The notes under the pieces: model-generated
Database searches by the model: none
What the model was told of the DNA's origin: nothing
What the model saw: the letters and a program-made list of their open reading frames with translations, nothing else
Part shown: in pieces, positions 25,844-57,978 of the stretch
Layout of the letters: each line of letters starts with the position of its first letter
How positions within the stretch are numbered: position 1 is the first letter of the stretch
Made by a program: the position numbers and the translations under genes
DNA from: an uncultured candidate division Zixibacteria bacterium
GTDB lineage: Bacteria > Zixibacteria > MSB-5A5 > RBG-16-43-9
Length of the DNA stretch: 64,000 nucleotides
Assembly: GCA_963713865.1 (NCBI GenBank)
Contig: OY970208.1
Coordinates: forward strand, 2,592,001-2,656,000
Direction of reading: 5' to 3'

Positions 25844-25868
25844 GGACAGAACACTGTTCTGTCCCTAC
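25844..25868 (-). repeat. REP copy identical to the hairpin inside the RAYT gene
   Basis: GGACAGAACACTGTTCTGTCCCTAC is the exact reverse complement of 55708-55732. Confidence 0.9.
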
Positions 25869-54647: not shown

Positions 54648-55464
54648 TTAAAAGACTAAGTTCAATTCAAAGGAGGAATTAGTAAAATGTTTTTTGATCT
54701 TTGTTCTAAGTTCTTCAGCATAAAACCCATTATTATTGTAAATACTCTGATAACCAGATAAAAGTTCTGGAAAATTTATATTCAAAAATTTTCTTAACCT
54801 CTCCCAGATTGAGGGTGTATAGTTCATCTTATCTATATAGATATATTTAACCTTTGCATCAATGGCTTTCTGGAAAAATAAAGATAAACTCTCATCCGTA
54901 TCTGAGAAATACGGAAGAACCGGACCAAAAAAGATAAAGGTATCTATTTTTTCTTGATTTAATATTTTTAAAGCTTCAAATCTACTCTCCACCGAAGAAG
55001 CCACCGGCTCAAATTTTTTCTGGACTACCGGGTCCAAACAGGTGATAGTGAAACCAACTTCGCAATCCTTCATTCTTTTCAATATATCCAGATCTCTCAA
55101 GACTAAACCCGATTTGGTTCTGGATTTGCACTGAGAAATCAGATTTAGCTAAAATCTCCAGTGCACCGCGAGTAAGTTTATATTTCTCCTCCAGGGGCTG
55201 ATAAGGGTCAGTAACCGAGCTTAGCATTACTACTCCGGATTTAGCTTTTATAACCTCTTTTTCTAACCTTTCCAGAAAATTAACCTTAACATCTGCGAAC
55301 GTTCCCCATTCTTCGTTATGATCCGAAAATCTTTTCATAAAAATAGCATAACAATACGCACAATTATGCTCACACCCCGTATAAGGGTTCAGACAATAAT
55401 CCACCCCCTGAATCCTGGATTTAACCAAGGCGTTTTTGCAGGTTATCTCTTTGAGTTTGAGCAT
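54648..55464 (-). CDS. Radical SAM protein, SplB/DNA-repair photolyase-like; apparent 1-nt insertion at 55117-55123
   Basis: NPYTGCEHNCAYCYA (CxxxCxxC), SSVTDPYQP.E; rejoined QIQTKS..RDLD..FEP....R. Confidence 0.85.
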
Positions 55465-56015
55465 AAAATCGATTGAAAATTTTCAATATTATTCTTTTCC
55501 AAATCCCATTTTAAAGGATTATAAATGATATATTCCCGAATTTCATATAATGATTTCTCATTTCGAATAACGTGATCATAGAAAGACCTCTGCCACTGGA
55601 ATTTATTATCAGAGAATTTTTCATGAATATCTTTGATTACAACATTTTTAAATGACTTTATGATTTTTGACAATAAACCATATCTTCTTTCAGTATTTGT
55701 TGTATTTGTAGGGACAGAACAGTGTTCTGTCCATTTATCGTTATCATCATTAATACTTATAATTCCATGTATATGGTTAGGCATTATTACAAATTCATCA
55801 ATTTCAACATTATCATAGTGGTTGGGAATTTCTTTCCAACACCTTTCTGCAGTTTCACCAAATTGATTCAAAATCATTTCCTCATTTTCAATTTTACCGA
55901 AATATTCAATCCCATCTTTTGTACACAGAGTAATAAAATAGTATCCGTTTTTAGAATAATCATATTCATTTAGGCGATTTAATTTTCTTTCTTTAAAAGT
56001 TGACTTCATCCTCAC
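55443..56015 (-). mobile_element. REP-associated tyrosine transposase (RAYT, IS200-like Y1 HUH nuclease)
   Basis: RL..YDY...GYYFITLCT, IMPNHIHGII (HUH), WQRSFYDHVIR, YI.YNP.KW. Confidence 0.9.
55708..55732 (+). repeat. REP hairpin embedded in-frame in the RAYT gene
   Basis: GTAGGGACAGAACAGTGTTCTGTCC; encodes WTEHCSVPT on the coding strand. Confidence 0.88.
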
Positions 56016-56028
56016 CTATTATATAATA

Positions 56029-56053
56029 GGACAAAACGATGTTTTGTCCCTAC
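56029..56053 (-). repeat. REP hairpin between RAYT and the cargo gene
   Basis: GGACAAAACGATGTTTTGTCCCTAC, with a compensatory A-T pair relative to the other copies. Confidence 0.88.
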
Positions 56054-56058
56054 AAAAC

Positions 56059-56586
56059 TTAATCCCCATAGATTTTAAATGCTTTATAGTTTCCTCCTTC
56101 ATGAGAAGGTGCTAGATGCAATAGATAGATGGCCTGAAAGGAATTTTTTCCAGTGATTTGTATTAAATTTAAACATTCTTTAACCGATATTTCATTACTT
56201 AGAGGAGCTCTTTCTTCTATACATAACCAGATTTTATCAGTTCCTGAATATTTTTTACTGTATTTATCAATTATCTCTTTTTGAATTCTTATACATATTA
56301 AATCGCTTGAATTTTTAATGACCCCACCCCATCGCTCTTCATAACCTCTCTTGGGGAACTCTCGCTCTCCTCTGGCAAGTGTCCATTCTTGTTTTGCATC
56401 GCTATCTTCATAATATGCGGTGGCAACTTCAATCCCAAGTAAGTATCCCTCAAATCTATAAATACAATCAGGTTCGTTTATATCATTTCCGTATCTTTCA
56501 AATTTAGCATTTAGATTTAAACAATTTATCAATCTATCACAAACACATTTTTCATGCTGTTTTTGTATTTGTTTTGCAGAATTCAT
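56059..56586 (-). CDS. Hypothetical AT-rich protein, possible PD-(D/E)xK nuclease fold
   Basis: N-terminal helix Glu (QHE), EPDCIY, GIEVAT; bracketed by direct REP copies. Confidence 0.6.
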   Translation of the reverse strand: MNSAKQIQKQHEKCVCDRLINCLNLNAKFERYGNDINEPDCIYRFEGYLLGIEVATAYYEDSDAKQEWTLARGEREFPKRGYEERWGGVIKNSSDLICIRIQKEIIDKYSKKYSGTDKIWLCIEERAPLSNEISVKECLNLIQITGKNSFQAIYLLHLAPSHEGGNYKAFKIYGD

Positions 56587-56611
56587 AATTTTTACTCTTC
56601 AAATACAAAAT

Positions 56612-56636
56612 GGACAGAACGATGTTCTGTCCCTAC
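56612..56636 (-). repeat. REP hairpin between rimO and the cargo gene
   Basis: GGACAGAACGATGTTCTGTCCCTAC, 4 bp from the rimO stop. Confidence 0.88.
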
Positions 56637-56640
56637 AGAA

Positions 56641-57978
56641 TTACGAAACCTCTCCTATCAAATCATAATCCTTCCACCCAGTAATCTTAACTTCTGAGAA
56701 ATCTCCAATTTTTAAATTCTTTCCTTTAACCAGAATCACCCCATCTATCTCCGGGGCTTCTTTTTGGCTGCGTCCTATATAGTATTCATTTTTCCCTGAG
56801 AAATCATTTGTTTTAGACTCAATCAGAACTTTAACTTTTTCCCCTACTCTTTTCTCATTTTTCTCAAAAGCAATCCCCTGCTGGAGAGTCATCAGTTTAT
56901 CCACTCTTTTCTCTTTTTCTTTGAAAGAAAGGTGCTCTTTTAGATTAAAAGCTTCAGTTCTCTCTTCTCTGGAGTAAGTAAAAGCTCCCAATCTATCAAA
57001 TCTCTGTTCTTCTACAAAATTTAACAGCTCTTCGAATTCTTCTTCCCCCTCTCCGGGAAAACCGACTATAAAAGTAGTCCTCAAGACCAGATCCGGGATT
57101 TTATTCTTTAGAGTTTTAATAAGTCTTTGAATCTTCTTGCGATCAATTTTCCTGCCCATCAAATAAAGAAGTTTATCTGAAATATGCTGCAAAGGAATGT
57201 CTAAGTATTTGCAGGTCTTCTTATTGGCGGCAATCTCTTTTATGAGTTTTCCATTGTAATGAGCGGGATGAGTATAAAGTAATCTAATCCACTCAATCCC
57301 TTCTATTTTAGAAAGTAACGAAAGTAATTCAGGGAGTCTTTGTTCTCCATAGATATCCTGCCCGTATAGAGTAGTATCCTGAGCTACCAGATTAATCTCC
57401 TTAACTCCATTTTCAGCTAAAGATTTTGCTTCCACTAAGATATTTTCGATCTTCCTGCTTCTATATCTTCCTCTGATTTGAGGAATTGAGCAATAAGCAC
57501 AGAAGTTATCACAGCCATCCGCAATCCTCAAATAAGCATATGGGAAAGTTTGAAGGGCTCTTCTTTCAATTTTTTCTTCATATTCTCTGGGCAAAGGTGA
57601 AATAAAAGAAACTCTATTCCCCGTTATCACCTCTGAGCATAGTTTAGAGATATTATCTATTTCATTCAGCCCTAAAATTCCGTCTACTTCTGGCATAGAT
57701 TCCCACAGCTCAGAATTATATCTTTGAGCTAAACATCCGGTAACTACGATTTTCTTTCCGTTGCTGCCATTTTTAAAACGGGAAAGCTCTAAAACTGCTT
57801 TAATGGATTCTTTTTTAGCCTGCTCGATAAATCCGCAGGTATTGATAATAAAAATTTCTGCTTTATCTTTTTCTTCAGTCAATTCAAAGCCGGAAGACTG
57901 GAGTTGAGCTTGAATTACTTCCGCATCTAAATCGTTTTTAGGACAACCCAATTTTATTACATTTACCCTTATTCCCAT
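56641..57978 (-). CDS. rimO: Ribosomal protein S12 methylthiotransferase
   Basis: LGCPKN..D.E, INTCGFI..AK.ES, GCDNFCAYCSIP, TTFIVGFPGE, APEIDG. Confidence 0.96.
   Translation of the reverse strand: MGIRVNVIKLGCPKNDLDAEVIQAQLQSSGFELTEEKDKAEIFIINTCGFIEQAKKESIKAVLELSRFKNGSNGKKIVVTGCLAQRYNSELWESMPEVDGILGLNEIDNISKLCSEVITGNRVSFISPLPREYEEKIERRALQTFPYAYLRIADGCDNFCAYCSIPQIRGRYRSRKIENILVEAKSLAENGVKEINLVAQDTTLYGQDIYGEQRLPELLSLLSKIEGIEWIRLLYTHPAHYNGKLIKEIAANKKTCKYLDIPLQHISDKLLYLMGRKIDRKKIQRLIKTLKNKIPDLVLRTTFIVGFPGEGEEEFEELLNFVEEQRFDRLGAFTYSREERTEAFNLKEHLSFKEKEKRVDKLMTLQQGIAFEKNEKRVGEKVKVLIESKTNDFSGKNEYYIGRSQKEAPEIDGVILVKGKNLKIGDFSEVKITGWKDYDLIGEVS

Follow-up and report, generated by a model that had tools for sequence, protein, structure and literature searches.

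The locus described here raises two questions: why a transposase gene should carry, within its own reading frame, the hairpin that its product is predicted to recognize, and whether further copies of the same hairpin around the adjacent gene reflect gene capture. It lies in the window, a stretch of 64,000 nucleotides (G000:C1:2592001-2656000) from the single-contig genome (G000; 2.72 Mb, 40% G + C) of an uncultured candidate division Zixibacteria bacterium, which was compared with 41 relatives in groups that include the families f1 and f2. The transposase is a repetitive extragenic palindromic (REP)-associated tyrosine transposase (RAYT, also TnpAREP), its hairpin family is designated REP-A, and the adjacent open reading frame (ORF) is referred to as the cargo; both genes lie between rimO and a radical SAM gene. 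With a probability of about three in four, the locus is a REPtron of TnpAREP subclass 2.4 (RAYT group 4) in Zixibacteria, in which the in-gene hairpin was inherited with the RAYT lineage and kept at the DNA level, and in which the cargo was not captured by REPs.

The original prediction, made from the letters of the sequence, had taken the gene for a RAYT, that is, a Y1 HUH enzyme, and this assignment stands. The ORF (55443-56015, minus strand) matched Pfam Y1_Tnp with 27.9 bits against a cut-off of 23. Its longest form opens at a GTG at 56015, but alignment with two orthologs favored the ATG at 56009, which is probably the true start, and the protein comprises 188-190 residues (188 from the ATG, the length also of the collection protein P0001). 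The AlphaFold2 (AF2) model (pLDDT 77) was nearest to 4er8_A, the Escherichia coli TnpAREP bound to REP (E 7.6e-07, TM 0.54/0.61), followed by ISDra2, IS200 and IS608, while a sequence search of the PDB returned no match at E 0.01. Subclass 2.4, which corresponds to RAYT group 4 of Bertels, is characterized by the motifs NH[IFV]H, WQ and YIxNNP (Quentin, Siguier, Chandler and Fichant 2018, PMC6006769, Table 1). The window protein displays the first in MPNHIHG (HIH at residues 79-81) and the second in WQRSFYDH (residues 139-146), whereas its Y region, YIIYNP, is one residue off YIxNNP; the corresponding segments are YIINNP in the G001 ortholog and YIQNNP in paralog P2. It further resembles this subclass in its length (near 194 aa in the subclass), in a variable beta3-alphaC insertion with an in-frame REP in the stretch that separates the HuH motif from the Y motif, in the presence of both canonical and 'double foot' REPs (GT[AG]G...C[TC]AC; the latter are described in PMC6006769), in GTAG REPs within 1000 nt of the gene (the two copies on its rimO side), in the several paralogs per genome and in a patchy spread over phyla. 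The host differs, as PMC6006769 names Cyanobacteria, Bacteroidetes and 'various phyla'. The E. coli TnpAREP with its REPs and bacterial interspersed mosaic elements (BIMEs; PDB 4ER8) shares the Y1 HUH fold, the GTAG-footed hairpin as target (predicted for the window gene) and a single-copy gene flanked by REPs, but it belongs to subclass 2.2 (DHLH, WE) and, as characterized in PMC6006769, has bulged REP stems and no in-gene REP.

REP-A is a 25-nt element composed of GTAG, a 9-bp stem and a 3-nt loop, and its copies stand at all of the coordinates and distances that the original prediction had given (Table 1). The 25-mer GTAGGGACAGAACAGTGTTCTGTCC is present exactly within RAYT and again 30 kb away; the copy behind rimO differs from it in two loop bases, and the copy between cargo and RAYT bears a compensated stem change (G>A / C>T) and is the sole genomic copy with the A/T stem variant. 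No match to the 25-mer was found in 100 dinucleotide-preserving shuffles of the window, and the single strand folded with -8.4 kcal/mol under DNA parameters and -12.2 under RNA parameters. Genome-wide, the degenerate pattern GTAGGGACARAACNNNGTTYTGTCC had 37 matches (reversed control, 0), and 56 loci were recovered at up to three mismatches. Judged by a crude gene set of longest ORFs, 52 of these 56 loci were intergenic. For the 43 situated between co-directional genes, GTAG was on the sense strand of the upstream gene in 29 and on the other strand in 12, with two double-footed copies. The repeated unit extends no further than T + GTAG + hairpin: when flanks common to the in-gene and extragenic copies, a sign of a master copy, were sought, only the T before GTAG was found (45 of 56 copies). 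The most frequent loop triplet was AGT in G000 (15/37; in-gene AGT) and ATT in G008 (8/17; in-gene ATT), although the three genomes concerned are too few for this agreement to be weighed. Exact copies were present in all nine f1 genomes (4-39 each) and in G010 (21), and in none of the other 31 genomes.

Families of this kind, the GTAG-type REPs, were catalogued by Di Nocera et al. 2013 (PMC3733652), and REP-A is one of them. The GTAG hairpins constitute the REP family of the window RAYT, which is predicted from sequence to bind and cut them. Many further GTAG hairpin families occur in G000 (e.g., at C1:61794, 489496, 1278665, 2174835 and 2533096), and for three REP families, with stems GGGGTTCAA, GGGGCGTAT and GGGGCAGAC, the cognate RAYT class was found only in related genomes.

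The hairpin within RAYT is read in frame as WTEHCSVPT, just after the HUH motif, as the original prediction had noticed; a self-target within the frame of the enzyme gene was already in print for the subclass, since in-frame REPs within subclass 2.4 tnpAREP genes were described in PMC6006769. The peptide occupies residues 93-101 of the 188-aa form, 12 residues past HIH, and in the AF2 model it falls in a loop (residues 92-110, pLDDT <50) between the HUH strand (79-86) and a helix (112-132). The in-gene hairpin was retained in the RAYT orthologs of G001 and G008. By tblastn, G000 contains at least six RAYT paralogs of this type, the five others being 40-46% identical to the window gene, whose own class (class A) is represented by one copy at 100%, with the next paralog at 46%. 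Each of the six carries its own distinct GTAG/CTAC palindrome at the same position, translated as WTEHCSVPT, VGAIHELPLQ, VETHGHASLH (plus a second hairpin), a 48-nt composite, GRGTLQRAPP and VGAGLKPAPT, while more distant Y1 genes had no such in-gene palindrome. Full-length copies were found elsewhere in the genome for five of the six in-gene types; the 48-nt composite of P4 is whole only in its own gene, although its half-stems recur.

A similar picture emerged in the relatives, where 31 RAYT loci were identified at E 1e-20 or better in 16 of the 41 genomes. In 28 of these 31 loci there was a palindrome, 8-18 bp long and footed by GTAG or CTAC on at least one side, that began 2-13 residues past the HUH glycine, and the HUH-to-WQ spacing across RAYT genes was 44-61 residues. 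On a maximum-likelihood tree computed with the insertion masked, the 13 hairpin classes required 14 changes (minimum 12), against a mean of 24.1 in shuffles, none of 200 being as low, a test that overstates the signal because kin share labels. The hairpin class follows the RAYT protein tree in the sense of clustering only. Between ortholog pairs across genomes, the DNA outside the hairpin was 63-85% identical and the stems were near 100% (28/28 at 72% gene identity, 26/26 at 66%, 30/30 at 64%, and 21/22 in another pair); the score of 15/26 for L089/L090 is an alignment artefact, as both carry the same hairpin. Sister hairpin classes differ by compensated changes. The in-gene peptide, modelled as disordered, differs between classes, and the class-A peptide VGTE[HQ]CSVPT was kept in homologs 52-77% identical from several phyla. 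Taken as a whole, this suggests that the in-gene hairpin is a feature maintained at the level of DNA or RNA rather than a neutral passenger.

The neutral alternative is that of PMC6006769, in which a surface loop of the transposase tolerates its own REPs, which enter it by chance and play no part there; the beta3-alphaC segment is regarded in that paper as a peripheral extension of little impact on activity, away from the DNA-binding face. The predicted disorder of the loop agrees with this explanation, as does the occurrence of in-frame REPs in other genes (PMC3733652). In some RAYT homologs (P0035 and others; VGTEQCIAAN-type decapeptide), two to six tandem in-frame copies look like ongoing insertion and indicate that a REP can multiply inside the gene without breaking the frame, and in three genes the copies seem to have decayed. 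However, a tolerated insertion does not readily account for a hairpin in the same loop of 28 of 31 genes and across paralogs only about 40% identical, for an HUH-to-WQ distance that stays at 44-61 residues, for hairpin classes that track the protein tree, or for stems far better conserved than the gene. Moreover, RAYT is the only convincing gene in G000 with REP-A inside, the other three in-ORF copies lying in doubtful ORFs of 90-141 aa. Where PMC6006769 describes a tolerated insertion, the in-gene REP here has a fixed position, agrees with the RAYT tree and shows conservation of its DNA, and we consider it doubtful that the hairpin is without any role.

Several observations nevertheless weigh against an inherited and maintained hairpin of subclass 2.4, in addition to the shared labels in the tree test and the crude gene set on which the REP contexts were judged. 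The window protein scored 72.4 bits against NCBIfam NF047646 (REP_Tyr_transpos), under the curated cut-off of 80, and was therefore filed by its motifs, fold and REP association, not as that equivalog. The decayed-looking hairpins in 3 of the 31 genes (L094, L096 and L099) imply that the hairpin is dispensable at least sometimes. Extragenic REPs could be the templates from which the near-perfect stems are copied, with no selection acting on the copy in the gene, so that the conservation pattern fits selection and repeated copying from genomic REPs alike. Finally, only G000, G001 and G008 yielded a class-A RAYT, whereas REP-A is abundant (4-39 exact copies) in seven genomes in which no class-A RAYT was found (G002-G007 and G010), these being draft assemblies 65-97% complete; in G004, for example, 39 exact copies were present and a search at E 1e-20 gave no RAYT homolog. 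The persistence of REPs would accordingly need no linked gene copy. Either REP families outlast the enzyme genes or the enzyme genes are missing from the assemblies; likewise, REP-A without RAYT either is kept because it serves the host, for instance as a 3' end element, or accompanies a gene that the drafts miss.

Should the gene become single-stranded, the enzyme would bind the in-gene hairpin like any other REP, and this copy, kept by selection or by copying from genomic REPs, would be a cognate site in lasting linkage with the enzyme. Most likely, it would serve as the source of the REP family, or its seed copy, and as a brake on the enzyme's own expression. In this reading the outer REPs are ordinary extragenic members, the one at the 3' end of rimO old and fixed and the one between cargo and RAYT recently inserted, and the cargo shares with RAYT an intergenic hot spot at which relatives carry other small accessory genes, e.g., toxin-antitoxin genes. 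A stronger proposal, which we advance tentatively and hold to be possible rather than probable, is that the in-frame REP is a selected nucleic-acid element that ties each RAYT to its cognate hairpin, serving as master or seed copy and allowing the enzyme to sense or limit its own gene. If so, the seed copy could found or renew a REP family after duplication or horizontal transfer, and RAYT with its in-gene REP would form a self-contained replicator, which would explain the joint divergence of hairpin type and enzyme clade.

In the literature searched, no paper on REPs inside RAYT genes was found besides PMC6006769, whose Figures S6, S7 and S10 may already show part of what is reported here. 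The in-frame REP itself is therefore known; added here are the Zixibacteria example, the six paralog-hairpin pairs, the 28 of 31 loci in relatives, the concordance with the tree and the conservation of the stems. The lead that we draw from the sequence comparisons is one of co-divergence: the in-gene hairpin behaves like a cognate site that is maintained and changes along with its enzyme, and the same literature does not take this further than the 2018 description. For the question of how REPs spread and how a RAYT stays matched to its own REP family, G000 offers six cognate enzyme-hairpin pairs side by side. As the hairpin is written into each gene and conserved at the DNA level, the pairing can be tested by recoding the stem without changing the protein.

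Table 1. Features of the RAYT locus and the distant REP-A copy (positions in the window)
Feature	Position	Strand	Remarks
Radical SAM gene (SplB / PA0069-like)	54648..55464	-	Conserved right flank of the variable interval; split between two frames in G000
RAYT / TnpAREP gene, subclass 2.4 type	55443..56009	-	Assigned by Pfam Y1_Tnp, motifs and fold
In-gene REP-A copy	55708..55732	+	GTAG on RAYT antisense strand
REP-A variant with compensated stem change	56029..56053	-	Lineage-specific insertion between cargo stop and RAYT start
Cargo ORF, 175 aa	56059..56586	-	Small accessory protein; probable PD-(D/E)xK nuclease-like fold
REP-A copy behind rimO	56612..56636	-	GTAG on minus strand, the rimO sense strand
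rimO (ribosomal protein S12 methylthiotransferase type)	56641..57978	-	Pfam UPF0004 + Radical_SAM + TRAM_2; conserved left flank
Exact REP-A copy	25844..25868	-	Ordinary member of the 56-copy family

The second question concerns the two REPs that tightly bracket the cargo, 4 bp from the rimO stop and 5 bp past the cargo stop, as originally noted. From this layout an integron-like capture had been proposed, in which RAYT inserts single genes at REP hairpins, REP-gene-REP units are mobile and the interval between rimO and the radical SAM gene is a cassette array. A comparison of this interval in the relatives (rimO ortholog present in 40 of 41) upheld the expectation that it varies, empty sites included, but not that its alternative contents end at a right-hand REP. 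Reading from rimO, G000 has REP, cargo, REP and RAYT; G001, of the same genus, has REP, cargo and RAYT; and G008, of the same family, has REP, a 98-aa nucleotidyltransferase gene, REP, cargo and RAYT. In G004 only the REP is present, in a 140-bp gap. The REP is followed by a nucleotidyltransferase (MNT) and a HEPN gene in G006, by the same pair with a shortened HEPN in G007, and by an unnamed 225-aa ORF with an ORF6N-domain gene in G003. Without any REP, G005 (f1) has a single 719-aa ORF with an SPL domain, G021 (f2) has a PemK/MazF-type pair, and G029 and G009 are empty. REP-A thus stands directly past the rimO stop in seven of the eight f1 genomes in which rimO was found (G000, G001, G003, G004, G006, G007 and G008, not G005). 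Such contents make the interval a hot spot of small accessory genes, and the rimO-side REP, so widely shared, is old.

Capture would account for this variability, for the f1 inserts that start right behind the conserved REP (that of G005 excepted) and for the G008 nucleotidyltransferase gene between two direct REP-A copies. However, the right-hand REP of the cargo is found only in G000; in G006, G007 and G003 the only REP lies on the rimO side, and the inserts reach the start of the radical SAM gene without another; and those of G005 and G021 have none. The interval therefore varies also in G021, where REP-A is absent genome-wide (0 copies). Nor is the cargo bound to flanking hairpins: five more distant homologs, from Verrucomicrobiota, Acidobacteria and another Zixibacteria genus, had neither a RAYT nor a matching hairpin pair in their flanks (up to 4 kb on each side, less at contig ends).

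The distribution of REP pairs across G000 leads to the same view. Sixteen neighboring REP-A pairs lie less than 3.3 kb apart (8 direct, 7 inverted and 1 mixed), and the direct pairs enclose zero to four ORFs of the crude gene set, of any size. Direct pairs around exactly one gene numbered 4, against 0.56 expected under uniform placement (P = 0.0024), an excess in favor of capture that was no longer significant when positions were kept and strands shuffled (P = 0.135), REPs being clustered in all arrangements. Direct pairs around co-directional genes are in any case expected from the sense-strand bias of REP-A. One gene so bracketed, of 281 aa (genome positions 1266885 and 1267946), is a core gene: 21 of 21 relatives have an ortholog, those of REP-A-free families among them. 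The Logan contigs of four runs contained only REP-to-REP joints at a depth of 3-4, whose sides of 22-25 nt correspond to other REP loci, and these have no bearing on excision.

Two known systems invite comparison. Elements of the IS200/IS605 group (IS608, ISDra2) have the same enzyme fold, and their hairpin ends stand in direct orientation on one strand and serve single-strand 'peel and paste' transposition; the direct hairpin pairs in G000 resemble two such ends, which speaks for capture. However, the class-A gene as a whole is present once and only the 25-nt hairpin is multicopy, unlike a multi-copy element. Integrons (IntI, attC) likewise use folded single-strand hairpins as sites, and the interval resembles them as a spot of variable content whose small accessory genes lack promoters and share one orientation. 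In contrast, the enzyme here is a Y1 HUH protein and not a tyrosine recombinase, the inserts are not each bounded by a hairpin of their own (REPs flank the cargo on both sides in G000 only), and the same hot spot varies in hairpin-free genomes. No integrase was present among the ORFs scanned in the interval, although no search aimed at IntI or attI was made. Integron-like capture, by which genes would have been acquired in a new way, is not supported by the comparative data and appears to us very improbable; what looked like a cassette is an accessory gene of the ordinary kind at a site of variable content.

The history of the right-hand REP is apparent from its junction. In G001 and G008 the cargo stop is separated from the RAYT start by 1-3 nt with no REP between, and alignment of the junction revealed the G000 copy to be an insertion of approximately 40 nt, specific to this genome, which altered the codons at the end of the cargo and at the start of RAYT. 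On a metagenome contig (run X1), RAYT and rimO were joined by 563 other letters in place of 613, a putative divergent cargo allele without the extra REP.

The cargo itself matched no family in Pfam, NCBIfam or PADLOC, and its 57 homologs are all unnamed. Its AF2 model (pLDDT 93) gave no Foldseek match in the PDB at E 0.001; the best fold matches (VIA-align) were weak and mostly restriction-endonuclease-like (1y0k, Z 9.4; CdiA-CT 4g6v, Z 7.4; SfsA, PaqCI and XisH). Together with invariant residues that include E12, D40, E53, D107 and K108, the model points to a probable PD-(D/E)xK nuclease-like fold, which we treat as a lead only. Such a protein might be a nuclease-like partner of the transposase, the two genes forming a functional module, and their spacing in G001 and G008 would suit this, as would the equal sizes of the contigs that hold cargo homologs and RAYT homologs in several other Zixibacteria (23183, 22994, 1523 and 14178). 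However, the cargo has a single match in G000, the five other RAYT paralogs there being without a copy of it, and its distant homologs have no RAYT in the flanks examined. A two-gene module is thus unlikely, and the reading of the cargo as an accessory gene sharing a hot spot with RAYT is preferred.

Some further observations were made on the REPs and on the flanks of the interval. At G000:C1:329300-330700 (L006 and L007), two direct repeats of 169 nt, 92% identical and 1267 bp apart, each contain a REP-A copy and enclose approximately 1.1 kb without an ORF of at least 70 aa; an Rfam scan of the ORF-free 1.2 kb between the REPs at 329376 and 330643 gave no match, the lone match, a tRNA, lying outside. 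The 719-aa ORF of G005 (L073; G005:C241, 2625-4784, minus strand) has a radical SAM domain of the spore-photoproduct-lyase type and is located directly upstream of the resident SplB-like gene. In contigs of runs X3 and X4 that cover window positions 55337-55468, the radical SAM gene has its opening 129 nt in duplicate, with 792 other letters between; this arrangement would suit an element that enters the gene at its 5' end and provides a substitute start, a possible origin of the hot spot without REPs. The radical SAM gene of G000 consists of two overlapping ORFs in different frames, with NCBIfam scores far under the cut-offs, whereas in relatives it is a single frame. The split is either a recent frameshift (a pseudogene) or an assembly error, and related metagenome contigs are one base short near 55118-55120, within the split gene.

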